The notes under the pieces were generated by a model. The model ran no database searches. It was not told where the DNA came from and saw only the letters and a program-made list of their open reading frames with translations. Source: an uncultured virus (IMG/VR IMGVR_UViG_3300025617_000008) (lineage: Duplodnaviria; Heunggongvirae; Uroviricota; Caudoviricetes). Taken from it: a stretch of 64,000 bases of DNA. Location of the stretch: IMG/VR virus record IMGVR_UViG_3300025617_000008. The stretch is one strand, 5' to 3'. Below, in pieces: positions 3,049-41,811 of the stretch. The position numbers were made by a program, and so were the translations under genes. The stretch's first letter is position 1, and the number at the start of each line of letters is the position of its first letter.

Positions 3049-4154
3049 TGGAATATACAGGATTAATACCAGAAGTACAAAAACCAGTACGTCCAGCATT
3101 GCCTCACTGGCGATACGGAGTCATAGAAGATGGTGTCAAGAAAATTGATCCGTTACTTCATTACGGATGTTTTACTTTGGGTTTTGAAAATCCTAACATC
3201 ATAGACAAAGTTTGCCAAGTAATGAAAAACATCAAACCTGAAATTGCTGAAGTTGTAGGTTATGGTGACATACGACTAAATCAAGTAAGTTATGAATTAC
3301 AAAATAGACTTTATCAAGTAACAGGCGGCTACAATAGTTTTTATGCTTTATCAGGCAGTGACGCAAATGAAGGTGCTGTTAAGTTAGCAAGTGCTTATCA
3401 TCATTCTAGAGGTAACACTAAAAAAACAAAGATCCTAAGTCTAACACCAAGTTATCATGGAAGCACATATCTCACAAGCTCATTAGGCTGTGATACATTA
3501 ATGAACGATCCCTTTTACAACTTTAAAGAGTCCGACAACGTAATACGGGTTCATAGGGATTTTTTACACACAGACCAAGACTGGAACGAGATAGGAGCAG
3601 TCATGGTTGAAACTTGTTCTTATGGAAGTGATCTAACTCCATTTACAACAGACTTTTGGGAAAAAATTACATACATTCAAAATACATATGATGTATTAAT
3701 TATTATTGATGATATTTTTATGGGCGGCGGCAAAACTGGCCATTATGTAGGATGGAAGCATTTACCGGTTAAGCCAGATATCTTTACTATGGGCAAAGCA
3801 ATAACTGGAGGATTCTTTCCGTTAAGCATTACGCTCTATAACCAAAAAGTTAAAGAAGGTCTGCCTTCCAATTTTAGATGGGAGCATGGTTTTACCTATA
3901 ACTTTAGTATTCCCGGTATTGTAAGTGCTATAGAATATTTAGATATTGTACACAATCAAAATCTTGTTGGACAACATACTAGTTTAGTTAATCGTGCTAA
4001 GAATATATTTTTAGATTCAGGTTACACTATTATTAATAATTTTGGATTATATTTTTTAGTACAGAAATATAAGTTTAAAACTATGTATATGATTCCGTTG
4101 AATGCTGATGATATCTATTTTAAAGTATTACAGGAAGAAATAAATCGCAAATGA
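3048..4154 (+). CDS. Class III PLP-dependent aminotransferase
   Basis: SGSDANEGAVK, SYHGST, DDIFMGGGKTG, PDIFTMGKAITGG (PLP lysine), HGFTY. Confidence 0.9.
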   Translation: MEYTGLIPEVQKPVRPALPHWRYGVIEDGVKKIDPLLHYGCFTLGFENPNIIDKVCQVMKNIKPEIAEVVGYGDIRLNQVSYELQNRLYQVTGGYNSFYALSGSDANEGAVKLASAYHHSRGNTKKTKILSLTPSYHGSTYLTSSLGCDTLMNDPFYNFKESDNVIRVHRDFLHTDQDWNEIGAVMVETCSYGSDLTPFTTDFWEKITYIQNTYDVLIIIDDIFMGGGKTGHYVGWKHLPVKPDIFTMGKAITGGFFPLSITLYNQKVKEGLPSNFRWEHGFTYNFSIPGIVSAIEYLDIVHNQNLVGQHTSLVNRAKNIFLDSGYTIINNFGLYFLVQKYKFKTMYMIPLNADDIYFKVLQEEINRK

Positions 4155-4687: not shown

Positions 4688-5751
4688 TTTATACAGAATT
4701 CGATCCATTACAAGAAGTAATTGTAGGTGACTCATATGAAGCAAGCGATCTAATCAATCTGCTCCATAAAAGAAATTTAAATGGATTTGATAAAATCCTA
4801 GAAGAAACAAAAGAAGATCTTGATAACTTATCTTCACTGTTACAATCTCACGGTGTAATAGTACATAGACCAGATGTATATAGATTTAGCACAAATATAG
4901 AGATGCCTACGTTTGATATCAGACTTCCTATGAGTCCGCTAGTTCCACGTGACGCTTACATTGTTCGCGGAAAAACTGTGATACAAACTTATACAAGTCT
5001 AACAGATAGATATTTTGACAGCCATTCTTATTATAATATTTTTAAAGACTTATTTGATCAAGGATACAACTGGATTAGTCAACCATCACCTGTACTAAAA
5101 AATCTTAATGAAACAGAAAGATGGTTCTTTGACAAAGATGTATATAATAGAGAACTTAATGATAAAGTACTTTGGCATACTGCTACAATGTTTCAGGCAG
5201 GCGATGCTGTTATTATTAATAACAAAGGACCTGGTACACAATCTGGTCTAGAATGGATGAAAAGAAATCTTCCTGATACTAGATTTATTACTAATGAGAA
5301 TACTGTATTTGAAAACTTTGGACACATTGATCACGGGTTTATCTTAATCGATGACGACACTGTAATCCACGCAGGAATAGAATGGGTTCCGGATGCTATT
5401 AAAAACAAAAAATTAATTGATATCAAAAAATATCTTCCTGAGCTTAAACTAGAAAGATTTAAACAAGATTATTCACAAAGCGGAAGTAGGTACGATGTTG
5501 AATGGGTTGAAAAGTATCTTGAAAACTGGAAGGGATATAATCAAGAAGTATGCTTTGATCTGAATGTAATTATTGTTGACAGTAAAAATATTGTGTGGGG
5601 CCGTGAAATACCTGAACTATTTAGATATCTAAAAACATTTGGCATTGAAAGCACTGTTGCTCCTATGCGACATTCTCTATTTTGGGAGGGCGGCATTCAT
5701 TGTGCTACTTTAGATATTAAAAGAAATGGTGTGTCACGAACAATAATCTAA
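4684..5751 (+). CDS. Amidinotransferase (glycine/inosamine-phosphate amidinotransferase family)
   Basis: EFDPLQEVIVG, PRD, GHID, C-terminal GGIHCATLD with catalytic Cys. Confidence 0.9.
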   Translation: MIYTEFDPLQEVIVGDSYEASDLINLLHKRNLNGFDKILEETKEDLDNLSSLLQSHGVIVHRPDVYRFSTNIEMPTFDIRLPMSPLVPRDAYIVRGKTVIQTYTSLTDRYFDSHSYYNIFKDLFDQGYNWISQPSPVLKNLNETERWFFDKDVYNRELNDKVLWHTATMFQAGDAVIINNKGPGTQSGLEWMKRNLPDTRFITNENTVFENFGHIDHGFILIDDDTVIHAGIEWVPDAIKNKKLIDIKKYLPELKLERFKQDYSQSGSRYDVEWVEKYLENWKGYNQEVCFDLNVIIVDSKNIVWGREIPELFRYLKTFGIESTVAPMRHSLFWEGGIHCATLDIKRNGVSRTII

Positions 5752-6185
5752 TTTCCGTAACTTTTTATTTCTTCCAAATAATCTTTGTCCCACTTATCGT
5801 AGTAATCTGTTTTTTCTAATAGACTTCTAGCAGTAAGTAATTCTTTTTTAGTTTGTACAATTATTAACGGCAAGCATTCATTGCCAGTTTCAACACCGTT
5901 AATGTAATTTTTCTTTTCAGGATGATCGGGTAAAAATATATACTTCTTATGTTTCTTATTAAGTTTACGACACAGCGTTTCAAGCTCATCAAATGTAGAA
6001 TTTACAGCAGTTTCAATGTAAATTGTAATTTGGCTGCCTAAAGGTTCTATATTTTGGATAGATAGTTTTTCCACAGGAATTACGCCGGGCATTCTAGCAA
6101 ACGGACAAATGCTTTTTCCATTTAGTTCTGGTCTAGACTGCTTTACTTTATTAAGCCATTGAGCAATTACTTTAACTGGATTCAT
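5748..6185 (-). CDS. Hypothetical protein (ICPFA motif)
   Basis: 145-aa ORF with TATAAATA 5 nt upstream of the ATG. Confidence 0.7.
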   Translation of the reverse strand: MNPVKVIAQWLNKVKQSRPELNGKSICPFARMPGVIPVEKLSIQNIEPLGSQITIYIETAVNSTFDELETLCRKLNKKHKKYIFLPDHPEKKNYINGVETGNECLPLIIVQTKKELLTARSLLEKTDYYDKWDKDYLEEIKSYGN

Positions 6186-6190
6186 AATGA

Positions 6191-6198
6191 TATTTATA
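6191..6198 (-). promoter_or_regulatory. T4-type late promoter TATAAATA
   Basis: Exact match to the gp55 late consensus, 5 nt before ATG 6185. Confidence 0.65.
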
Positions 6199-6224
6199 AT
6201 TTGTCCAAAATGTACATTTAATAC

Positions 6225-6252
6225 TTGACTTCTAGCACAAAGATGTTATTAT
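6225..6252 (+). promoter_or_regulatory. Sigma70-type promoter
   Basis: TTGACT-16 nt-TATTAT with TGn extended -10; predicted start near 6259. Confidence 0.7.
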
Positions 6253-6258
6253 TAGTAT

Positions 6259-6483
6259 GTTGTGTTAGGCATTGTGTTTAACACAACCGGGAAAGCAAAG
6301 GGTAGATGAGGATAGGCAGTTTTTATTTTACAGCTCATTGAAACAGCATGTAAAGTGATAGTTGTGTGCTCCGACATTAGAAAATTTGTTCTTTGCTGGT
6401 CGGTGATAAGCAAACTATTTGTTTTTTGAAACTTGTAGTTTGACACTTGTTAATTGTTGTGCTTATTACTTGACCTTTTGCGG
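6259..6483 (+). ncRNA. Candidate structured RNA with a 7-nt-periodic UUG tract
   Basis: Hairpin 6259-6287; long-range stems 6295-6303/6473-6481 and 6311-6318/6460-6467; internal hairpins 6327-6354 and 6358-6418; TTG at 6419, 6426, 6433, 6440, 6447, 6454. Confidence 0.65.
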
Positions 6484-6511
6484 ACCTGTTAAACTCATTG
6501 AAAGGATAAAC

Positions 6512-6775
6512 ATGGCGAGAATTACATCTCAAACAGCAATTGAAGCAGTTGGTGGCGACCAATTTTTGTTAATCAGAATGGCCTCATACAGAGCAAGATT
6601 GCTTAGTACAGGCACAGACAAACCGAGGGTTGATCCAAAAGACAATAAATGGGGTGTGATAGCTATTAGAGAAATAGAAGAAGGCAAATATACTGTTGAA
6701 GAATACGAACAGAATTTATTGGTTGGATTTGAAAAAGAAAAAGCAGATGAGGTAGACGATGAATATCAATCTTAG
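6512..6775 (+). CDS. rpoZ: RNA polymerase omega subunit homolog
   Basis: MARITSQTAIEAVGG.QFLLI..ASYRAR...VIAIREIEEG aligns by eye with proteobacterial RpoZ; AAGGA RBS before ATG 6512. Confidence 0.88.
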   Translation: MARITSQTAIEAVGGDQFLLIRMASYRARLLSTGTDKPRVDPKDNKWGVIAIREIEEGKYTVEEYEQNLLVGFEKEKADEVDDEYQS

Positions 6776-7319
6776 AAAAGCTAACGCTATTCAAAATCAA
6801 ATTATTGAAACCATTGCGGAAATTGAAATGCCGCAAACGGTTACTATTAACGAGTTTCAACATGCTGATGTTGAGATAGCAAATGCGAAAGTTACCCTTA
6901 TGGATAACGATCGAAAACGAGCAATGTTGACTACTGCTCTTTATAATATTCGTGGGTTAGTTTCCGAAGCTAATCAGCAAAGTGGAATTAGTCTTCTACT
7001 AACTAAAAGCGCCTTGGCTGAGAAGCGAATTCAGCAAGTTCGCGAACTTGCTAGGATGACTGTAGTAACTCCACTAGAAGTTATCGAAGGACGACTTGAA
7101 AAAATCAAATCACGTAAAAGTGATGAGTTTTACGGTCGTGATGAAATTACTTCAGGAATCGTAGGTGCTAAAGATATTAGCCAGTTTAAATCTGAACTGA
7201 AAAGTATCCAAAAGCAAAAGCGCAAATACGCTGACGAAATTCTAGAGCTTAACATTAAGACCGAAGTACCTCTTTCTGAGGATACTATTAATGTTTTAAC
7301 CGAAGCTGGAATTATTTAA
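6759..7319 (+). CDS. Helical/coiled-coil hypothetical protein (possibly DIP1984/septicolysin-like)
   Basis: 186 aa, long helices, C-terminal ILELNIKTEV; family assignment tentative. Confidence 0.7.
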   Translation: MNINLRKANAIQNQIIETIAEIEMPQTVTINEFQHADVEIANAKVTLMDNDRKRAMLTTALYNIRGLVSEANQQSGISLLLTKSALAEKRIQQVRELARMTVVTPLEVIEGRLEKIKSRKSDEFYGRDEITSGIVGAKDISQFKSELKSIQKQKRKYADEILELNIKTEVPLSEDTINVLTEAGII

Positions 7320-7493
7320 ATGTCAGAGATTGTAAAATATAAAATTACAATCACAAAGGGTAATGATGTGGATGAACAAATTCACATTGCTGATTATCCA
7401 TCAATTGAAAAACTTGTAGAAAATTTTTATAATAACGGTGCTGATGCTGTTGAACTGGAGTTATTAGAAACACATGTCGTCAGAAGCTATTAA
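7320..7493 (+). CDS. 57-aa hypothetical protein
   Basis: ATG immediately after the preceding TAA; overlaps next gene; not in the ORF track. Confidence 0.55.
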   Translation: MSEIVKYKITITKGNDVDEQIHIADYPSIEKLVENFYNNGADAVELELLETHVVRSY

Positions 7494-7722
7494 ACCTTAC
7501 CAACCACTAGCATGGGCATCTACGTTTTGCCTACTTGCGTCAGCGGGACTACTTTCTTTGTACCCTAATGATGTGTATGCTACGTACGGATTTTTTATTG
7601 CCAGCACACTTTGGACTATTGTTGGTGTACTTTGGAAAGAAAAGTCATTGATCTTTCTTAACGGATCGCTTACAATAATATATGTAATAGGAATTTTAAA
7701 GCATTTGGCAACAATGCTTTGA
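7474..7722 (+). CDS. Small three-TM membrane protein
   Basis: Three hydrophobic segments, W..VG.LWKE.SLI.LN motif. Confidence 0.7.
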   Translation: MSSEAIKPYQPLAWASTFCLLASAGLLSLYPNDVYATYGFFIASTLWTIVGVLWKEKSLIFLNGSLTIIYVIGILKHLATML

Positions 7723-7731
7723 TGACGGTTA

Positions 7732-7808
7732 CTGCCCTTAGCTCAGCTGGATAGAGCAACAGCCTTCTAAGCTGTGGGTCAGAGGTTCGAATCCTCTAGG
7801 GCAGGCCA
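7732..7808 (+). tRNA. tRNA-Arg(TCT)
   Basis: CTGCCCT/AGGGCAG acceptor, GCTC/GAGC D-stem, ACAGC-CT-TCT-AA-GCTGT, TTCGAAT, CCA. Confidence 0.95.
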
Positions 7809-27907: not shown

Positions 27908-30900
27908 ATGGCAAGAAAAGAGATTAATATCGGTGTTGAGGGCAATGACGGCACCGGCGATAGTATTCGCGATTCGTTTGGTAAAGTAAACGATAACTTT
28001 CAAGAGATTTATGCTGTATTAGGACTAGGTGGCGCACTTAGTTTTATCGGGCTAGATGATGTAGCCGCTAGCAGTTATCAAACAGCAGATAACAACAAAA
28101 TTCTTACAGTTGACGCAAACAACGAAAAAATTCAATTTACAAAACTAGATAGTAACGAAACTATTGTTATTGATCAAAGTGTACCTGGTGTAATTAAATT
28201 TAGTTCGCTTGCTTCTGCGCTGATTAATGATCCAGATCCAACACTTGCCGCGGATATGGATGCCAATAATAAGCGTTTAACAAACGTTGCCGACGCACAA
28301 TTAGATTCAGATGGCGCAAATAAAGGGTATGTAGATACAAAACTATCGCTTGCTGGTGTTGATGCTATTGACGAAAACGGAAATATTGAACCTGACTGGG
28401 GTACAATGTCAGGTCCTCTTATCCTTTCACGTAATCCGATTGACTCGGACGATGTTAACTACGGCGGTTTGGTTGCTTCTACTAAAGCATACGTAGATAG
28501 TAAAACATTTATATCAGCTAATAACTTGTATGTTGCTACTAACGGACAAGACACAAGAACAGATATTCCTCTAAGTCAGCAAGGGCGTTCACCTTCTACA
28601 GCATTTGCTAGTTTAAGCAAAGCGGCTCAAGTAGCCGAAGAGTTAGTTAAGGCGGCACCAGTTGAACTTGGACCTTATCAGAAAACATTAACGTATAACA
28701 ACGGTACACAAAATTGTACACTTGAATCATTAATTCAATCTCCACTATCAGGTAACGGTGCTACTGGTACTGTTGAGATGCAACTTGACGAAACACAAAC
28801 TATTCAAATTGTAAATGGTGGTACTGATTATGAAATTGGTACTGAACTAACACTTACTGGCGGTCTTGTTGTAGTTCCGGCAGTGTTAAGAGTTGTTGCT
28901 AAAGATTTTGCTGGTTCAATTACACAGGTAGTTATTGTAGATCCAGGTGTGTTTAGTACACTGCCTACAGACATTACAGATGTAGGACACGTTTCAGCAG
29001 TTTCAGGAAGCGGTACTGCTAAATTTAGTCTTAAGTTTAGCGTAAACAGAGTTCTAGTTGCTACTTCTGGTAGCAATTATGGTAGTGCTTCTGTTATTTT
29101 TAACGGTGGTGGCGCTACAACACAAGCTGAAGCAAACACAGTTGAGATTGCTGGCGAAATTAAAGAGATTGGAATTCTTAGAAACGGTACTGGATACACT
29201 AGTATTCCTACAGTTGATATTTTCTTACCAAGAATGTTGCTTAGAACAGAAAACTTAGGTACTGATTTTACTGACGATTTGCGTGAAGGACAATTACTGC
29301 GTGGTGTTGATAGTGATGCTATTGCTAAAATTATTTCACACTCGGCACAGCGTGATGCTCAGGGTAGAGAAATTTTTGAAGTAGAATTATTACAAGGTGC
29401 TTTCCAAGTTGGAGAAGTAATTCAGTACGGTGATCCAGCACAGAATATACAAATTACAATTCAAGTTGAAACTGGAATATATTATGAACATTTTCCAATT
29501 AGACTTTCACCTAACGTATCATTAAGAGGTGACGAATTTAGACGTACAATCATTCGTCCAAAACAAGGTGAATCAGAATCGCCATGGGCTAGGGTATTCT
29601 TCCGTAGAGATCCAATTATTGACGGATTAAGAGTTACTGAATATGAATTTGGTTATCAATACTTAACCGATCCATTAGACTTCTCAAGTCAACCTAAAAA
29701 CAATGACGAAATGGATGTGTTTTTATGTGCTGATGCTACTATTGTAAGAAACGTTAGTGTTCAAGGACACGGCGGGTTCATGATGGTATTGGATCCAAAC
29801 AACCAAGTAAATTCTAAATCACCATATTGTCAAACTGGATCGTCTTTTTCAAAGAGTATTAACGTTAAAAACTTTGCTGGTGGACAGTTTGTTGATGGAT
29901 TTATGGGTAACCTAGATGGTATCTTATTATACAAAGCAGACGAAACTGGCGAATTAACTAGAAACCCATCAGGTGGTGATGATAATAAAATTGTTATCGG
30001 TGGCTTACAACGTGAACCACAACTACCGACGTCATTTAACATTGGCGAAGACATTTATAGAATTACAATTACTAACAGAGTTGAAAGTGCGTTCTTTGAT
30101 GCTAAAGTTCTTATTGAACAAAATAGAACTTTTATTCAAGAAGAAACTATTCAATGGCTTGCTACACAAAATTTAGGATTTACATTTGACGAAGTTAAAT
30201 GTCGTAGAGATGTAGGTCTAATTGTTGATGCTGTTGTAAATGATGTATTGTACGGCGGTTACGAAGAATCAACAAGAGCAGGTCGATTATATTTCTCAGG
30301 CGGATTAACAGTTGTTCCAGGACAAGTTGTTGCTACTTCAGGAGCAATTACAAAAGCAAAAGAAATTGCTACTACTTGTGTAAGACAAAACACATGGCCA
30401 GCACTAGGAACCGTAGCACAAACTAAAATTGCTTCAATTACCAACGCAGAACAAGGCGGAGCAGAACAAGAAATTATCAATGCTTTTGATATTGTAGCAA
30501 ACATTATTCGCTATGGCGAGAAAATGTATATTGCTAAAAAACTATTACAAGAAAACAAAGAGTTTATTCAAGCAGACACAATTGGATACCTTTCTGTAAA
30601 CTATCCTAATCTAGATTACAATGTAGCAACTTGTTTTAGAGACAGTGGTTATATTGTAGACGCTTTAAGTATTGACCTATTTGGTAATGCTCCTAATGCC
30701 GGCGCAAGTGATTTAAATCAGGGTAACTTTAATAACTCCATTAGAGCGGGTTATAGTTATTATAGAGCAGGTAAAAAACTTATTCCATCGTCAGGTGATC
30801 CGCAAACTGTTAACCAGTTGCCTGCCACGCTAGATGCTGTTGAGCATATTAGAACTAGAGTTGGGGAAATTCTAAATAATACGCCGCCGGCAAGTGTGTT

Positions 30901-33900
30901 TATTGGACAAACATTTGATCCTACAACAACACTTGATATTACTTCAAACGAATTTACAATTACTAATCACGGATTTAATACAGGATCCAGAGTTGTTTAT
31001 ACAAACGGCGGAGGCACAAGCATTGGTATTGCTGGCGGAGGAACACTAGCAAACAGTGGTGTGTATTATACATACAAAGTCGACGATAATAGATTTAAAA
31101 TTTATACATCTATAGAGCTTGTTAGAGCTCAGGAAAGAAACCCAGGATCAGAATTTGAAGTTGATTTTGCTGATCAAGGAACAGGCACAGCCCATGTATT
31201 CGACTGGAATGTAACGCAAGATGTAACTCTAACAGCGCAAGACCTAAATGACGCAGGTATTAATGATGCTATTACTACTTCAGTAGGATATATGAAAACA
31301 TTAATTGCCGGCGACAGTGCTCAAGCAGGCGAAGCATACGCTTCATTCGGTGACTCAACAGGAGTTCCTGTTGTTTACCCACTTTATGAGTGTGTACTAG
31401 ATAATCCATACGATAAGATGACAGCAGGTAAAGTTACACTTGCTACTCCTGGTAATAAATCAATGCTAGGAAATGACTTTACACAGGTCAACGATATGGG
31501 CTACGGTGTGTTTGCTACCAACAACGGATTGGTAGAATCGGTATCAATGTTTACGTACTATTGTTACACTGCGTACTTTGCTAACAATGGTGCTCAAATT
31601 AGATCACTAAACGGTTCTTCGGCACATGGTTTCTATGGTATTAGAGCTAACGGTGCTGATCCAAACGAAGTACCAGATAGAGTCGGATTGAAATTTCCTC
31701 TAATTCAAACAGGTACAGTGTTTGAAGATAGACCTCTTGATATTGTTAACGATAAATCTACTGCTAAAATATTTGTTCAGAACGTTTCTTATCCTCCGTT
31801 CCCAGGTTGTTTTGTTGAGATTGATCACTCTAATGATGTCCAGCAAGATGCTAGTGTAAACACTAAAGTTGGATTAAGATCCTATAAGATTACATCAATA
31901 GCAACAAGTGGATTACCAAGTGGTGCTTATGAATTAGCTATTGATACAGATATTAGTGAAGGCGGACTAGCCGTCGATGTTCCAGCAGGTAAAAATGTTG
32001 TTATTAGAGCATTTGAAGAATTTACAATTTCTGACAAAGTTCAGGTTGTTAGTACAAGACCTTCAACTGCGTTAATATTTGATGAGAGCACAGGATTAGA
32101 TGATGCTGTTATTAGAGTATTATCATTTAACGGTTATACTGGAGTTGATGCCCAAGAAGGTGATCAAACAATTACAACCAAAGATGGTTTCTCGTATGTA
32201 AATTTAAATGTTAAAAAAGCCGATGCTGGATATACTCCTCCGACATTTGCTAACAACGTAGGCGATGATGCGATTGTTGTACAATCTCTTGTTCCAGAAC
32301 AGTCAGCACGTTTAACAAAACAAAGCACAGGATTTGCTATCTATGACGGTAGTAGTACCTCAACAGGCGGAATGCTATTTGGTTATCAAGATAGCATTTA
32401 CGAAGTTACTGGCTACGATGATGTTGATGTTTTAGACGGACTTGGACAAAAGGTCGGTAGTTATGGTTTGCTTAGTTTTAAGAACATTACTGATACAAAC
32501 GAATCACTAGTAAACAGAACTTATACTATTTCAGGTGCTACTGCGGCAAGTACAATTACTGTTACAGCTAGCCCATCACCACTTGCTACCATACGTCCAG
32601 GTAGACAAATTAGAATTACAGGTGCTGATAACGCCGCGTTTAATGGTTTATATTACGCAGGAAATACTACAGCAACTACATTTGATCTTTATAGCGATGC
32701 CGCATTAACAACTCTTGTTGACGGTAGTTCGTTTGGAGCGGCAGCCACATCAGGTAGTGTAGAACTATTTGGTGGAGCAACTGTTGACTTCAATGCTTCG
32801 TTAGAAAATTTACAACTTAAAGCAGGTATTAGAGCAGGTGCGCAAGGTGAAGTAACTGTTAATATTTCAACCATGAGAGCAACAGGACATGACTTCCTAG
32901 ATATTGGTACAGGATCATATGCTGATACAAACTATCCATCCAACATCTTTGGACCACCGAATAATCAACCATTACAATCAAATGAAGCAGTTGAGCAAGG
33001 AACTGGACGTGTGTTCTGGGTATCATCAGATCAATCAGGTAACTTCCGAGTTGGTGAATTCTTTAGTGTAGACCAAGGAACAGGTAAAGTAACACTTGAT
33101 GCTAAGATCGACTTACAAGGTATTACAAGTTTAAGACTTGCGGCTGGCGAAACTGTAAGTGAATTTACAGGTGATGTTACACTCGGCGGCGCAGGTGAAG
33201 CAAGTAACCAAGCTCTTCCAACTGAAGCGGCTGTTAGAGGATACATTGATAGACGTTTAGGTCTAACACACGAAGGTGGAATTCAAACTGTACTGATTGG
33301 TCCAGGCTTCTTACCACGTGATGGTTCCCGTGTAATGACTGGTCCAATTGATATGAGTAACAATGCTGTTACAGGTTTACCAGATCCAGATGTTGGCATT
33401 GAAGGCGAAACTGAAGCAGTAAGAAAATCATATATGAAGATCGGTAATCTTCAGGATGCTCCAGAAGGTTGGATGTTTGAAGAAGATCCGGCAGATCCTA
33501 ATGCTAAAAGACAGCCTGATTACAGTTATGTTGATAGTGCTGACATATTAGCATTCACAACAAATGGATCAAGCGAATTTACAAATGCTACTGTAGTAGG
33601 CGCATTGACATTTTCATTCCAACAGAACGCCGCAGGTGTTCCAGATGCTGTAGCACCCACAGTAACAAACTTCCCTGATCCACAAATTGTTGCTACTATC
33701 AATGATAATGTTATTGTTGACGCAGATGTTAACTATGACGCAGGAATTCAACATCATAAATTATCTTTAAACACTGCTAGAACAACAGAACCAAACGGGA
33801 TTGCTGTTAATGCTTACAATTACGTAGCAGAAACTTCACCCGGAGCTGGAGATGATTACACGGTAATTACAGCCAATATTGATCATAAGTTAACAGATGG

Positions 33901-35278
33901 CGATGCTGTTGTTATTAGTGATGAAACTGGTGTAACTGCAATTAACGGTGACTGGAAAGCAACTGTTATTTCTAATAGACAATTTAGTATTCCAGCAGAC
34001 ACATCAGCAGGCGGAGTAATATCCGGCGGAGTTATTAGACAGTATGGCTTAATCAGTGGTGCTCAAGAATTAGAATTTACTCTTGTAAACGGTTTCTTAG
34101 AATTACTAGATTCTACAAACTCAACAAGAGCTGGCGCATACTACGACGGTATTGGTTTTGAAAAGCTAAGACACATTGATGTCGCAGTAGTTGATACAAC
34201 TGATGACACTAATTTAGCAACTGGCCCGAATACCAAAGTACTTGCTAGAAGATCAAGTCCGGGGGGATTTGGATCGATTGATGGGCCTCCTGTTCCAATT
34301 GATGCTAACACCATTGTCGAAGACGGTTTAGGATGTAGACGTCCAGACTTCGGCGACATCGGCGTAATGGTAAGAACTGATACTGGAAATACTGCGGGAG
34401 ACTTTGGTACTATTGAATTTACAAGTTCAAACACAGCTAATACAATAGTAAGAAGAAGTGGTACAGGTAGCGCAGACTTTGCTGGCACATCGAACTTTGA
34501 AAATATTACGAGTGATGGTAGCATATTCCTCGATGTTAGTGACGGTGTAGAAAGTGGAAATTTAGCAGACTTAGAAGGGCTGTGGATGACATACGGTGCT
34601 TCAAATGCTCCTGTTATTACTAAACATGAACAAAGTGCAGCAGATAATTCTTACTATGTAAACTATCGAAATGGTAATGGTGGTGTTGCTATTAGAGCGC
34701 AATTTAGTAATGTTTCAGCAAACAACTACACAGAATATAGAGCAGGAACTCATAAGTTTAGAACTGATACTGGAACTTCTGGTTATGTAGAAGTAGGTAA
34801 TGGAGGATTCCTAACTGCTGAAAGAGGCAATGCGGCTCAGAATGGTTCTATTGAAGGTAACTGGACATTAACACCAGGAAGTAGAATGATGGCTACCTGG
34901 GCTGACTTGGCAGAATATTATGAGGGTGATAAAGAGTACGAAGCAGGAACTGTTGTACAGTTTGGCGGAGACAAAGAAGTATCTATTTCAGGTGAACTCG
35001 GAACTCATAAAGTTGCTGGAGTTGTTAGTACAGAAGCGGCATACATCATGAATAATGATTGTCCTGGAGAAAAAGTTCTTGTAGCACTACAGGGTAGAGT
35101 TCCTTGTAAGGTTGTAGGAAAAGTTGAAAAAGGTGATCTAATTATTGCTAGTGGTATTCCAGGTGTTGCTACGAGCGCAGGTGGAGATGCTAAACCAGGA
35201 ACTATTATTGGTAAAGCAATTGAAACTTATGATAGTGATCGAATAGGAATAATTGAAGTAGCGGTGGGGAGACTATAA
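27908..35278 (+). CDS. Giant tail/baseplate fibre protein (2456 aa)
   Basis: T4 gp9/gp10-like N-terminus INIG..GNDGTGDSIR..F.KVN.NF; beta-rich body; C-terminal ADLAEYY...GRVPCKV autoproteolytic chaperone-like domain. Confidence 0.85.
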   Translation: MARKEINIGVEGNDGTGDSIRDSFGKVNDNFQEIYAVLGLGGALSFIGLDDVAASSYQTADNNKILTVDANNEKIQFTKLDSNETIVIDQSVPGVIKFSSLASALINDPDPTLAADMDANNKRLTNVADAQLDSDGANKGYVDTKLSLAGVDAIDENGNIEPDWGTMSGPLILSRNPIDSDDVNYGGLVASTKAYVDSKTFISANNLYVATNGQDTRTDIPLSQQGRSPSTAFASLSKAAQVAEELVKAAPVELGPYQKTLTYNNGTQNCTLESLIQSPLSGNGATGTVEMQLDETQTIQIVNGGTDYEIGTELTLTGGLVVVPAVLRVVAKDFAGSITQVVIVDPGVFSTLPTDITDVGHVSAVSGSGTAKFSLKFSVNRVLVATSGSNYGSASVIFNGGGATTQAEANTVEIAGEIKEIGILRNGTGYTSIPTVDIFLPRMLLRTENLGTDFTDDLREGQLLRGVDSDAIAKIISHSAQRDAQGREIFEVELLQGAFQVGEVIQYGDPAQNIQITIQVETGIYYEHFPIRLSPNVSLRGDEFRRTIIRPKQGESESPWARVFFRRDPIIDGLRVTEYEFGYQYLTDPLDFSSQPKNNDEMDVFLCADATIVRNVSVQGHGGFMMVLDPNNQVNSKSPYCQTGSSFSKSINVKNFAGGQFVDGFMGNLDGILLYKADETGELTRNPSGGDDNKIVIGGLQREPQLPTSFNIGEDIYRITITNRVESAFFDAKVLIEQNRTFIQEETIQWLATQNLGFTFDEVKCRRDVGLIVDAVVNDVLYGGYEESTRAGRLYFSGGLTVVPGQVVATSGAITKAKEIATTCVRQNTWPALGTVAQTKIASITNAEQGGAEQEIINAFDIVANIIRYGEKMYIAKKLLQENKEFIQADTIGYLSVNYPNLDYNVATCFRDSGYIVDALSIDLFGNAPNAGASDLNQGNFNNSIRAGYSYYRAGKKLIPSSGDPQTVNQLPATLDAVEHIRTRVGEILNNTPPASVFIGQTFDPTTTLDITSNEFTITNHGFNTGSRVVYTNGGGTSIGIAGGGTLANSGVYYTYKVDDNRFKIYTSIELVRAQERNPGSEFEVDFADQGTGTAHVFDWNVTQDVTLTAQDLNDAGINDAITTSVGYMKTLIAGDSAQAGEAYASFGDSTGVPVVYPLYECVLDNPYDKMTAGKVTLATPGNKSMLGNDFTQVNDMGYGVFATNNGLVESVSMFTYYCYTAYFANNGAQIRSLNGSSAHGFYGIRANGADPNEVPDRVGLKFPLIQTGTVFEDRPLDIVNDKSTAKIFVQNVSYPPFPGCFVEIDHSNDVQQDASVNTKVGLRSYKITSIATSGLPSGAYELAIDTDISEGGLAVDVPAGKNVVIRAFEEFTISDKVQVVSTRPSTALIFDESTGLDDAVIRVLSFNGYTGVDAQEGDQTITTKDGFSYVNLNVKKADAGYTPPTFANNVGDDAIVVQSLVPEQSARLTKQSTGFAIYDGSSTSTGGMLFGYQDSIYEVTGYDDVDVLDGLGQKVGSYGLLSFKNITDTNESLVNRTYTISGATAASTITVTASPSPLATIRPGRQIRITGADNAAFNGLYYAGNTTATTFDLYSDAALTTLVDGSSFGAAATSGSVELFGGATVDFNASLENLQLKAGIRAGAQGEVTVNISTMRATGHDFLDIGTGSYADTNYPSNIFGPPNNQPLQSNEAVEQGTGRVFWVSSDQSGNFRVGEFFSVDQGTGKVTLDAKIDLQGITSLRLAAGETVSEFTGDVTLGGAGEASNQALPTEAAVRGYIDRRLGLTHEGGIQTVLIGPGFLPRDGSRVMTGPIDMSNNAVTGLPDPDVGIEGETEAVRKSYMKIGNLQDAPEGWMFEEDPADPNAKRQPDYSYVDSADILAFTTNGSSEFTNATVVGALTFSFQQNAAGVPDAVAPTVTNFPDPQIVATINDNVIVDADVNYDAGIQHHKLSLNTARTTEPNGIAVNAYNYVAETSPGAGDDYTVITANIDHKLTDGDAVVISDETGVTAINGDWKATVISNRQFSIPADTSAGGVISGGVIRQYGLISGAQELEFTLVNGFLELLDSTNSTRAGAYYDGIGFEKLRHIDVAVVDTTDDTNLATGPNTKVLARRSSPGGFGSIDGPPVPIDANTIVEDGLGCRRPDFGDIGVMVRTDTGNTAGDFGTIEFTSSNTANTIVRRSGTGSADFAGTSNFENITSDGSIFLDVSDGVESGNLADLEGLWMTYGASNAPVITKHEQSAADNSYYVNYRNGNGGVAIRAQFSNVSANNYTEYRAGTHKFRTDTGTSGYVEVGNGGFLTAERGNAAQNGSIEGNWTLTPGSRMMATWADLAEYYEGDKEYEAGTVVQFGGDKEVSISGELGTHKVAGVVSTEAAYIMNNDCPGEKVLVALQGRVPCKVVGKVEKGDLIIASGIPGVATSAGGDAKPGTIIGKAIETYDSDRIGIIEVAVGRL

Positions 35279-40389: not shown

Positions 40390-41811
40390 ATGGCCTTAAG
40401 AATTAGAAGAGGAACTGACGCAGAGAGATTAACAATCACTCCAGATGCCGGTGAACTCATTTACACAACAGATACAAAAGCACTATATGTCGGTGATGGG
40501 ACATTAGTAGGAGGAAAACTTCTTGCTAGTGGTACTACTATTATTAGCGACATTATATTAAACAGCAACGATATTACAGGAACAGGTAATATTGATATTA
40601 CAGGTAATATTGATGTAACTGGTAATATTCACGCACAAGGTAATATTACAGCAGACGGTAACTTAACATTAGGTGATGCTGATACTGATGGTATTACTCT
40701 AAACGCAGAGCTAACTTCAGATATCATACCAGATGCTACTGATACGTATGCTCTCGGTTCAACTAACAACAGATGGAACTTAGCAGTAATTAATAGTGTA
40801 CAGGCCAGTACTATTACAACTGACACAATCGCAGGAACATTAGATGGCGATGTTAAAGGTTCTGTTTTTGGTGAAGATTCTACTCCGTTAATCGACGCCA
40901 TTGCTAGTAAAATTATTGGTCCTATCGAAAACGGTAACACTGCTACGTTTACAGGCACCGTTGATATGACAGGTGCTACAGTAACAGGTGATGTTACAGG
41001 TGATGTTACAGGTAATTTAACTGGTGATGTTACAGGTGATGTTACAGGTAATTTAACTGGTAAGATTGTCGATAACAACGGTCAGGATGTTGTTATTATT
41101 AACGAACCAACTCTAGATAACGGCAATGGAACATTGTTTATTGGTGCGTTCTTAGGCGACCTAAGAGGATCTATTTTTGGAGATGATTCTACTATACTTG
41201 TTGATCAAACAGAATCACAAATTAACTTAGATGGAACTATTAGAGATAATGTTAGACCCGATACAGACGGAACTTACGAGTTAGGTGGTTCGCTTAACGG
41301 ATTCTCTGATGCCCATATTAGAGGAAAGATCTATCTTGGAACTTACGACAATGTCAATTTAAGAACTGAGAATGTTCTTAGCGTTGATAGACTTAGCGTT
41401 AAAGGCGGAATTGTTACACGACCTCCGGTACAGACAACCTTAAACGGCAATGTACAAACTGGAGTATCAAGAACAACTGTTGCTATTAATAATGATTCAA
41501 ATATTCAAAACGGTGCTATCTTTAGACTCCCGGGCACAGACGAACTTGTAGTACAAAGTGTTGCCGCTGGCGTTGTAACAACTACAACATCGTGGACAGC
41601 ATCAGGCGGTAACGGCGGCGATACTATTACGTTTTATAATCCTGCGGTAGGAAACAGTGTATACACTGATTCAGCACCAGCAAGCGGTGTTGGAAAGCCT
41701 GGTGATACTCCAGGACTTATGTTTGCCGATGCTTCTTATACTTACATGTGTCGAGGTACATATGACGGCGTTACAGAAATTTGGACCAGATCAGCGCATG
41801 TTGCTTGGTAA
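40390..41811 (+). CDS. Tail fibre with Mtd-like N-terminal domain
   Basis: LRIRRGT...GELIYTTDTK.LYVGDG; G[DN][VL]T repeats. Confidence 0.8.
   Translation: MALRIRRGTDAERLTITPDAGELIYTTDTKALYVGDGTLVGGKLLASGTTIISDIILNSNDITGTGNIDITGNIDVTGNIHAQGNITADGNLTLGDADTDGITLNAELTSDIIPDATDTYALGSTNNRWNLAVINSVQASTITTDTIAGTLDGDVKGSVFGEDSTPLIDAIASKIIGPIENGNTATFTGTVDMTGATVTGDVTGDVTGNLTGDVTGDVTGNLTGKIVDNNGQDVVIINEPTLDNGNGTLFIGAFLGDLRGSIFGDDSTILVDQTESQINLDGTIRDNVRPDTDGTYELGGSLNGFSDAHIRGKIYLGTYDNVNLRTENVLSVDRLSVKGGIVTRPPVQTTLNGNVQTGVSRTTVAINNDSNIQNGAIFRLPGTDELVVQSVAAGVVTTTTSWTASGGNGGDTITFYNPAVGNSVYTDSAPASGVGKPGDTPGLMFADASYTYMCRGTYDGVTEIWTRSAHVAW
40987..41061 (+). repeat. 2 x 36-bp tandem coding repeat built from 12-bp units
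   Basis: (GGTGATGTTACA)2-GGTAATTTAACT repeated twice. Confidence 0.85.

Follow-up and report, generated by a model that had tools for sequence, protein, structure and literature searches.

What is encoded by a short intergenic spacer in which the triplet TTG recurs, six times over, at a period of exactly seven nucleotides (nt)? That question is raised by a 64,000-nt stretch of DNA from an uncultured virus of the Caudoviricetes (IMG/VR record IMGVR_UViG_3300025617_000008), the whole of which is described here as the window. The spacer (6186-6511, i.e., 326 nt) is flanked by a divergent open reading frame (ORF) and by an RNA polymerase omega-like ORF (6512-6775), the end of which overlaps the start of a gene for a helical protein of 186 amino acids (aa). 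As shown below, the spacer bears a structured RNA, that RNA accompanies the 186-aa gene among phages, and the dinucleotide UG, at eight places, is what has been kept in register. The reading preferred here, and given roughly even credence, is of a stable phage RNA on which several copies of the 186-aa helical protein are docked by way of the UG register.

A structured, plus-strand RNA

Positions 6259-6488 are a structured RNA of ~230 nt, as read from the plus strand (Table 1). A first fold was derived from eight close copies, among which 13 compensatory pairs were seen. The consensus fold is based instead on an alignment of 63 distinct relatives, which is also the source of the conservation counts given below unless another alignment is named. 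As determined by RNAalifold, that consensus consists of 42 pairs, with both-side, i.e., compensatory, changes in 33 of them. Overall, 96.6% of alignment cells pair, versus 31-47% once the 3' partners have been shifted by one to three columns, and 0/500 shuffles reach the observed value on any of five pairing measures. A first-pass annotation of this DNA had drawn a 13-bp hairpin at 6259 along with two long-range helices, and covariation backs all three: the hairpin is P1, the helix at 6295-6303/6473-6481 is exactly P3, and that given as 6311-6318/6460-6467 is P4, in the form of 6311-6317/6461-6467.

Pairs of the G-U type are frequent (28, 31, 42, and 40 of the 63 sequences at four example pairs), and the many such pairs indicate that the plus strand is the functional one, as had also been proposed in that annotation. 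The z-scores for folding are consistent with this: -3.53 for the plus strand versus -0.62 for the minus strand.

A heptad register of UG dinucleotides

The TTG triplets that had been pointed out initially, that is, six at period 7 (6419-6454), a pair at 6386/6393, and others at 6272 and 6338, are all present in the sequence. The six are followed by the spacers TTTT, AAAC, TAGT, ACAC, TTAA, and TTGT. For other periods between 4 and 12, the longest TTG run seen anywhere in the window is 4. Dinucleotide-preserving shuffling of the 326-nt spacer never yields a run of six at periods 4-12 (0/20,000 shuffles), with five, reached in eight shuffles, as the maximum. Considering all 64 trinucleotides over those same periods, the sole other run of at least six in the window is of GGT, seven times at period 12, starting at 40987. 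The latter falls within ORF 40390-41811 and is a codon-compatible, glycine-rich repeat.

Among relatives it is UG that is invariant, at all eight units and in 63/63 sequences. These units are distributed as blocks of 2+4+2 (6386-6393; 6419-6442; 6447-6454), the G-to-G spacing within each block is 7, and the spacers carry 0.2-1.1 bits of information. Indeed, the invariant columns in the 3' half of the RNA are almost exactly the UGs of the eight units. The base preceding UG is mostly U, with C, A, and G occurring as well, and this variability implies that UG itself is what is being read. Runs of at least four UGs at period 7 are found in 99 of 104 distinct family RNAs versus 25 of 2,696 equal-length background windows taken from the same loci. 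The heptad UUG register is under strong selection.

In most relatives units 4 and 5 are separated by an inserted hairpin or linker that is self-contained and varies in length. The inserted hairpin is absent, with all six units found in strict period 7, from the window's own clade as well as from loci L036, L113, L116, L118, and L126. As for how the tract folds, it had been described originally as mostly unpaired. Across the family that description holds, with RNAalifold predicting no consensus pairs for the tract from the 63 sequences, whereas for the window's subclade it must be tempered by two small hairpins. The hairpins P7, P7b, and P8 of the eight-sequence alignment are not family-wide, with P7b seen in 18-30, distal P7 in 7-14, and inner P8 in 9 of the 63 sequences. 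Whether a given invariant UG is locally paired or free depends on the clade, and a secondary structure common to all therefore does not account for UG invariance.

Might the TTG repeats instead be 7-bp DNA iterons, as serve a repressor or a replication protein? This had been offered as an alternative in the first-pass annotation, and what speaks for it is solely the exact periodicity of the repeat as DNA. Only two of every seven bases are conserved, however, and the repeats lie inside covarying helices that possess many G-U pairs, pairs which have meaning on one strand only. Folding is strand-asymmetric, a 7-bp period does not keep to one face of B-DNA, and metatranscriptomes contain contigs of the RNA only (see below). 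A role as iterons accordingly is considered to be very improbable.

Linkage of the RNA to a single gene

Relatives were gathered by way of the 186-aa protein, of an alignment of omega-like proteins (metagenomes), and of an alignment of the 186-aa family (IMG/VR). The resulting close set consists of 80 loci as kept from 220 relatives, with the RNA located using an nhmmer profile of the eight-sequence alignment. The divergent set consists of a further 80 loci, kept from 393 IMG/VR relatives and built from members at 28-48% identity. Together these are 160 phage loci, and in 134 of them the RNA is found beside the 186-aa gene and on the same strand. In the close set it is upstream and on the gene's strand in 77/80 loci, the three misses being loci that end 40-327 nt before the gene. 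In the divergent set, at E<1e-5, the RNA is seen in 57/80 loci, again on the same strand, but upstream in 9 versus downstream in 48, with 32 of the downstream RNAs within 250 nt after the stop codon and the other 16 ~450 nt after it. The gene orders found therefore are RNA-gene, RNA-omega-gene, and gene-RNA. Such variability favors an RNA-protein pair over a simple 5' leader. The flanks of homologues of the 186-aa protein, as the first-pass annotation had recommended inspecting, thus do possess both the UG register and the covarying structure.

One 6.9-kb contig (L076) carries two diverged copies of the RNA, at 596-867 and 3126-3391, each followed by its own 186-aa gene. These two cassettes could represent either a duplication or a chimeric assembly. 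Scanning for the exact pattern gave six loci, of which four (L003, L004, L005, and L007) are chance matches and two were already in the set. A degenerate pattern gave 28 loci, with only L036 and L045 both new and true; L042 and L047 are true as well but already were in the set.

The linkage extends to cultured phages, though not all queries detect it. Searches by tblastn against cultured phages using the window's 186-aa protein, or instead the family member P0299, found nothing, and blastn of 5700-7800 found matches to tRNA-Arg only. Another member, P0083, however detected full-length relatives, at 27-28% identity, in Caulobacter phages CcrColossus and CcrPW as well as in Brevundimonas phages, and CcrColossus gp272, used as a query in turn, matched 11 cultured-phage records; these two were the only queries to do so. 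An unannotated spacer of 284-313 nt is present 3' of the gene in all four phages examined (CcrColossus, CcrPW, Kikimora, and Domovoi). That of CcrColossus possesses six UUGs at period 7, as well as a pair ahead of a CCGG stem, along with the AGA bulge and helices that follow one another as in the window, this in DNA of 55% GC. CcrPW similarly displays six UUGs, Kikimora a CUG plus five GUGs, and Domovoi five NUGs, with five UG columns invariant across the four (4/4). The register, in other words, holds in GC-rich cultured phages.

Table 1. Coordinates of the RNA, its parts, and adjacent features in the window.
Feature	Positions	Strand	Remarks
Structured RNA, whole	~6259-6488	+	Covariation in 63 sequences; metatranscriptome contigs; outside Rfam
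P1, 5' hairpin	6259-6271/6275-6287; loop TTG 6272-6274	+	Both-side changes in 8/8 counted consensus pairs
P2	6288-6290/6486-6488	+	Compensatory change in 3/3 pairs
P3	6295-6303/6473-6481	+	99.8% of cells paired
AGA bulge, part of GGTAGA	6304-6306	+	Invariant, 63/63; also in CcrColossus
P3b	6307-6310/6469-6472	+	Consensus fold, 63 sequences
P4	6311-6317/6461-6467	+	Compensatory change in 6/7 pairs
P5 region, variable	6318-6359	+	Relatives have a single hairpin or two, differing in length
P6'	6360-6365/6410-6415	+	Encloses P6; window forms only 4/6 pairs
P6	6371-6375/6399-6403 (region 6360-6415)	+	63-sequence consensus
UG units a, b	TTG 6386, 6393 (6386-6395)	+	Just 5' of the P6 3' strand; UG in 63/63
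UG units 1-6	TTG 6419, 6426, 6433, 6440, 6447, 6454 (6419-6456)	+	UG in 63/63 per unit
Closing stem 3' strands (P4, P3b, P3, P2)	6461-6488	+	63-sequence consensus
Sigma-70-type promoter, TTGACT-16 nt-TATTAT, TG upstream of TATTAT	6225-6252	+	Predicted start near 6259
186-aa all-helical protein gene	6759-7319	+	Constant RNA neighbour
RNA polymerase omega-like gene, 87 aa	6512-6775	+	Optional module member
Divergent ORF	5748-6185	-	PHROG 10325

Transcription, and whether the RNA is a leader

The promoter proposed initially, i.e., as of sigma-70 type and with a start near 6259, is retained in terms of both hexamers and their 16-nt separation in 8/8 close relatives. In some relatives the RNA's 5' end is instead directly abutted by the 3' end of a tRNA. 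Six public RNA runs match part of 5900-7700, of which four were examined, all as contigs, which give neither levels nor true RNA ends. All four contain parts of the region, and the region consequently is transcribed. Two marine metatranscriptome studies provide one contig each, of ~207 nt and of the RNA only (6283-6490 and 6280-6485), both ending at the foot of P2; DNA runs, by contrast, possess the whole stretch. That two studies stop at the same place is a weak hint of a discrete RNA of ~210-230 nt, though read-through transcripts fit equally well. A third run supplies a contig, 6275-6751, that extends from the RNA through the omega-like gene and which has adapter letters directly before 6275. 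The fourth (X17) supplies only ORF pieces, 6528-6849 and 7399-7549, and the parts that a run leaves uncovered are not evidence.

These data bear as well on whether the omega-like and 186-aa genes are under the control of the RNA as a cis-acting 5' leader, working either through a protein (autoregulation) or as a riboswitch. Autoregulation had been among the first-pass suggestions. The RNA is in fact directly 5' of the genes both in the window and in 77/80 close loci, the window has no terminator separating the RNA from the gene that follows, and the 6275-6751 contig spans just such an arrangement. A leader should not, however, be found downstream of the gene that it controls, as is the case for the 48 divergent loci as well as for 4/4 cultured phages. 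No conserved pairing masks the ribosome-binding site, nor is there conserved pairing with a terminator; the RNA-only contigs from two studies stop at P2; and in some loci, as noted, a tRNA adjoins the RNA's 5' end. Given three gene orders, a fixed leader or riboswitch was rejected, and a cis-acting leader more generally is seen as quite improbable. A crude count of terminators 3' of the RNA (3/134) is uninformative; terminator-like hairpins are visible by eye after the RNA in L142, L154, and L207.

The 186-aa protein

As the RNA and the gene co-travel in 134/160 loci, and do so in several gene orders, the 186-aa protein is the best candidate for a partner, which is how the first-pass annotation had ranked it among local proteins. 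The family is large: a word-indexed search returned 787 matches, and a profile search returned 1,381 representatives, at 50% identity and E<=0.001, of which 798 were at E<=1e-10. Among the best 150 of these profile matches nearly all are of 182-199 aa. The family ranges over aquatic myoviruses that are T4-like and, among cultured phages, jumbo siphoviruses that infect Caulobacter and Brevundimonas; no relative was found among prokaryotes as searched at one genome per species.

Modeling with AlphaFold2, using 18 aligned members, predicts a confident, all-helical structure (pLDDT 88.6), and the ESM Atlas contains a similar model. Nine predicted viral structures match at E<=0.001, including CcrColossus gp272 (TM 0.88) and, at TM 0.80, those from Vibrio phage Vp_R1 and Erwinia phage pEa_SNUABM_47, as well as two from giant eukaryotic viruses (see below). 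The polar residues R6, K7, N9, Q12, N63, R65, N72, K89, R90, and K152-K156 are invariant, which is counted here in favor of RNA docking. Comparison with Pfam and PHROGs yielded weak coiled-coil noise only, with no family for the 186-aa ORF, and a PDB sequence profile gave three weak coiled-coil rows.

The protein's properties are also where a different partner might be sought. Some host protein able to read U/G-rich single strands at 7-nt intervals (a factor of the cold-shock or Hfq-like type, for instance, or one associated with RNA polymerase) could be what the RNA sequesters, as a decoy or sponge, with the 186-aa protein belonging to the same pathway without itself binding UG. The evidence of structure and of the UG register is fit alike by such a decoy, the 186-aa protein is not basic and is without an RNA-binding domain, and the early sigma-70 promoter, the tRNA arrays (below), and the frequent proximity of an omega-like gene are all in keeping with it. 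A phage-encoded partner nevertheless better explains tight linkage to one gene, which persists down to ~27% protein identity and across myovirus-like as well as siphovirus jumbo phages having different hosts. The decoy explanation is, on balance, judged unlikely.

The tRNA-array setting, and whether the RNA acts alone

At least one tRNA is present in 128/160 loci, with all 1,012 of these tRNAs on the module's strand, and in 39/134 cases a tRNA ends no more than 60 nt from the start of the RNA match. Another phage RNA, GOLLD (RF02032), is found within the same arrays and ~1 kb from the module: at 490-952 of L113 (214.9 bits) and at 3362-3561 of L152, where it ends with the locus. A second conserved non-coding element, of ~220-380 nt, begins at the stop codon of the 186-aa gene (e.g., L166 2065-2409, L141 2062-2439, L110 3075-3417, and L125 3066-3422, among others). 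It has 71 nhmmer matches in 70 loci, i.e., in 52/80 of the close and 18/80 of the divergent loci, with none in the window, and often is followed by tRNA-Met(CAU). This element matched no Rfam family and ARAGORN identified no tmRNA in it; it may be a second RNA of the module.

GOLLD and ROOL are described as ornate RNAs of phages and prophages which form RNA-only assemblies (10.1101/2024.12.08.627333). Like them, the present RNA is phage-borne, structured, located among tRNA genes, and of unknown function, and it even shares loci with GOLLD; unlike them it has a heptad UG register. By analogy, the RNA could act alone, with its UG units engaged in tertiary or intermolecular RNA-RNA contacts and with the protein gene merely co-located. 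The shared niche (tRNA arrays in 128/160 loci, along with GOLLD in L113 and L152) is as expected from such a role, as too are the strongly conserved scaffold and the constant number of UG units. In the 63-sequence alignment, however, no invariant nucleotides that could partner the invariant UGs (CA, for example) are seen; the protein gene stays next to the RNA through changes of gene order; and the RNA's ~230 nt are far fewer than the several hundred of GOLLD or ROOL. An RNA operating without a protein is thereby viewed as improbable.

Comparison with other RNA-protein systems

The RNA is without a counterpart in Rfam 15, so far as searched, in agreement with the novelty claimed for it initially. 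Over the whole window at the gathering threshold, nothing overlaps it. At E<=10 over 5900-6900 there are only four rows, all far below threshold and lying either on 6259-6344 or on the minus strand of an ORF. In relatives no overlap is seen at E<=1 (10 loci) or at E<=0.01 (8 further loci). No description of the RNA was found in the literature searched, beyond which papers on it could exist.

The closest known grammar is that of HutP, i.e., XAG-N4. Within the hut terminator RNA of Bacillus subtilis, according to PMC2425495, HutP recognizes XAG triplets set apart by 4-nt spacers, with only the A and the G recognized. The HutP hexamer binds three triplets per face, reading one triplet per subunit, its two sites are joined by a linker of 12-17 nt, and some triplets lie in a hairpin (PMC2425495). 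Alike in the two systems thus are a free first base (XAG there, NUG here), the 4-nt spacer, the period of 7, and repeats in separate blocks joined by a linker, the latter corresponding here to the hairpin or linker that splits units 4 and 5 in most relatives. The differences are AG there versus UG here, 3+3 versus eight units (2+4+2), and a terminator versus a large covarying scaffold belonging to a seemingly discrete RNA that can be 3' of the gene. The candidate protein also is all-helical and lacks a HutP Pfam match, with none found among the window's ORFs nor, at E<=1, in 18 family members. A HutP-type site as such was rejected, as the conserved letters are U and G rather than A and G, no HutP protein is matched, no terminator follows the RNA ahead of the next gene in the window, and in 48/80 divergent loci the RNA is 3' of the gene.

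Repeats bound by TRAP are spaced by 2-3 nt, versus 4 nt here. TRAP, a homo-oligomer shaped as a ring, nonetheless is a further case of a protein that binds repeated triplets in an array, the array there consisting of 11 (G/U)AG repeats within the trp leader attenuator (PMC3064811). Here, however, the motif is UG and there is no terminator/antiterminator pair. Eight NUG units at period 7, as compared with ~11 of (G/U)AG, are not a TRAP-binding trp leader.

Phage T4 itself encodes small stable RNAs of unknown function beside its tRNA genes, rnaC and rnaD (NC_000866 annotation), which in that respect, and in the T4-type genome, are similar to the RNA described here. These are of 139 and 119 nt, however, and have no known partner gene. 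They also display no nhmmer similarity to the RNA, and their period-7 UG runs never exceed two.

Sponge RNAs such as CsrB and RsmZ likewise are structured, display many copies of a short motif, and hold several copies of a protein. Their motif, though, is GGA, located in hairpin loops and irregularly spaced versus the heptad UG seen here, and CsrA is a small, beta-rich dimer. Type III toxin-antitoxin systems (ToxIN-like) consist of tandem RNA repeats of ~34-36 nt next to the gene for an endoribonuclease toxin. An RNA-held toxin of this kind, another of the first-pass suggestions, is disfavored: there are no long tandem units but only a 7-nt register with variable spacers, and the neighbouring protein is all-helical in fold (the PADLOC library was not searched).

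A proposed particle, and what weighs against it

The reading preferred here, of an RNA that docks the 186-aa protein, can be set out as a sequence of steps. The RNA would be made either from the early sigma-70 promoter or from tRNA-array transcripts, and then trimmed to the closing stem. In the resulting molecule a 5' hairpin would be followed by a long, bulged closing stem (P2-P3-AGA-P3b-P4), which would hold both a multi-helix core and a loosely structured, flexible tract. At each of the eight UGs one protomer of a multi-subunit protein would dock (one per UG-N5), with the contacts repeated much as when XAG-N4 is read by HutP. The protein docking would be, most likely, the neighbouring 186-aa protein, and the functional unit a phage ribonucleoprotein particle, with about eight protomers, or four dimers, as the stoichiometry that we infer. 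The frequent omega-like gene along with the tRNA-array setting suggest, weakly, that such a particle acts on the host transcription or translation machinery early in infection.

Several points weigh against this reading. Gene linkage alone is no proof of physical interaction, and the linkage itself is less than complete: 17/80 of the divergent loci possess only weaker matches to the RNA, placed downstream alike, and 6/80 have no nhmmer match, of which three are truncated 3' of the gene while in another, L183, the RNA can be made out by eye. In the window's subclade the two small hairpins mentioned above (RNAalifold, n=8), which display a few compensatory changes, take in part of the tract. That the UG units number eight throughout could as well be due to tertiary or RNA-RNA contacts. 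As for the protein, it is near neutral, with a median pI of 6.0 (close set) or 6.6 (divergent set), and no recognized RNA-binding domain was found using Pfam, PHROGs, or the PDB sequence profile. Among solved structures its sole look-alike is 3kdq, which is from Corynebacterium and itself without a known function. Foldseek matches the latter at E 0.02 (probability 0.99, TM 0.39-0.46) and VIA-align at Z 10.8 (142 residues, rmsd 7.4), which is a range common for helical proteins; there is no sequence-level match to 3kdq, and other PDB fold matches are to generic helical hairpins. Lastly, fold relatives are found in giant eukaryotic viruses, i.e., A0A1V0SA40 of Catovirus and A0A5K0UAD2 of Yasminevirus (TM 0.65-0.66, probability 1.00; BFVD).

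Neighbouring genes

The omega-like ORF matches Pfam RNA_pol_Rpb6 (PF01192) at 32.4 bits versus a cut-off of 26, its residues 1-58 are 46.6% identical to enterobacterial omega, and seven such ORFs in relatives score 26.3-52 bits. As judged from these similarities, this rpoZ-like gene is a true, if optional, omega homologue. It is found on the same strand in 59/80 close loci, and is present in 10/80 divergent loci. Its place in the close loci varies: it may separate the RNA from the 186-aa gene or follow that gene, and in L110 alone it precedes the RNA. Of the initial description of the RNA as being upstream of rpoZ, consequently, the omega gene is real but the placement is incidental. The omega-like family is narrow (22 clusters by word search), and a single-sequence scan of viral contigs found no relative. 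An RNA polymerase omega (Rpb6) homologue is, all the same, encoded by T4-like aquatic phages.

In terms of gene content the window has the look of a T4-like marine myovirus, with baseplate wedge, clamp loader, PhoH, peptide deformylase, and tail fibres, a GC content of 37%, and four predicted tRNAs. Two small ORFs are located 3' of the 186-aa gene, within 7320-7722. One, of 57 aa, has a RelB-like match that is below threshold (E 0.0055, 17 bits versus a cut-off of 27) and the other, of 82 aa, matches the membrane protein family DUF6552 (31.4 bits versus a cut-off of 27). These are followed by tRNA-Arg(TCT) at 7732-7808. A tRNA-Ser(AGA) indicated by ARAGORN at 34538-34620 lies inside of a 2,456-aa tail-fibre-like ORF (27908-35278) and has no Rfam tRNA match at the gathering threshold; probably it is a false call.

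Significance

What has been described is an RNA that is strongly conserved, that is expressed in the sea, and that is absent from Rfam 15. Its eight invariant dinucleotides, heptad register, and covarying scaffold together represent an unusually clear, and testable, binding grammar. Caulobacter crescentus in combination with phage CcrColossus or CcrPW is available as a harmless laboratory system in which to make direct tests. More broadly, and more tentatively than the docking itself, the RNA and protein may constitute a new and widespread class of phage ribonucleoprotein, one in which ~8 protomers or 4 dimers would be arrayed on a 230-nt scaffold, made early from tRNA-array transcripts, often along with a phage omega, and which would reprogram host transcription or translation. 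Should the pair indeed form a particle, this would be a new RNA-protein machine for phage biology. It would supply as well a function for a common protein of unknown function, and perhaps an explanation for the presence of protein genes within the tRNA arrays of phages, next to RNAs like GOLLD.

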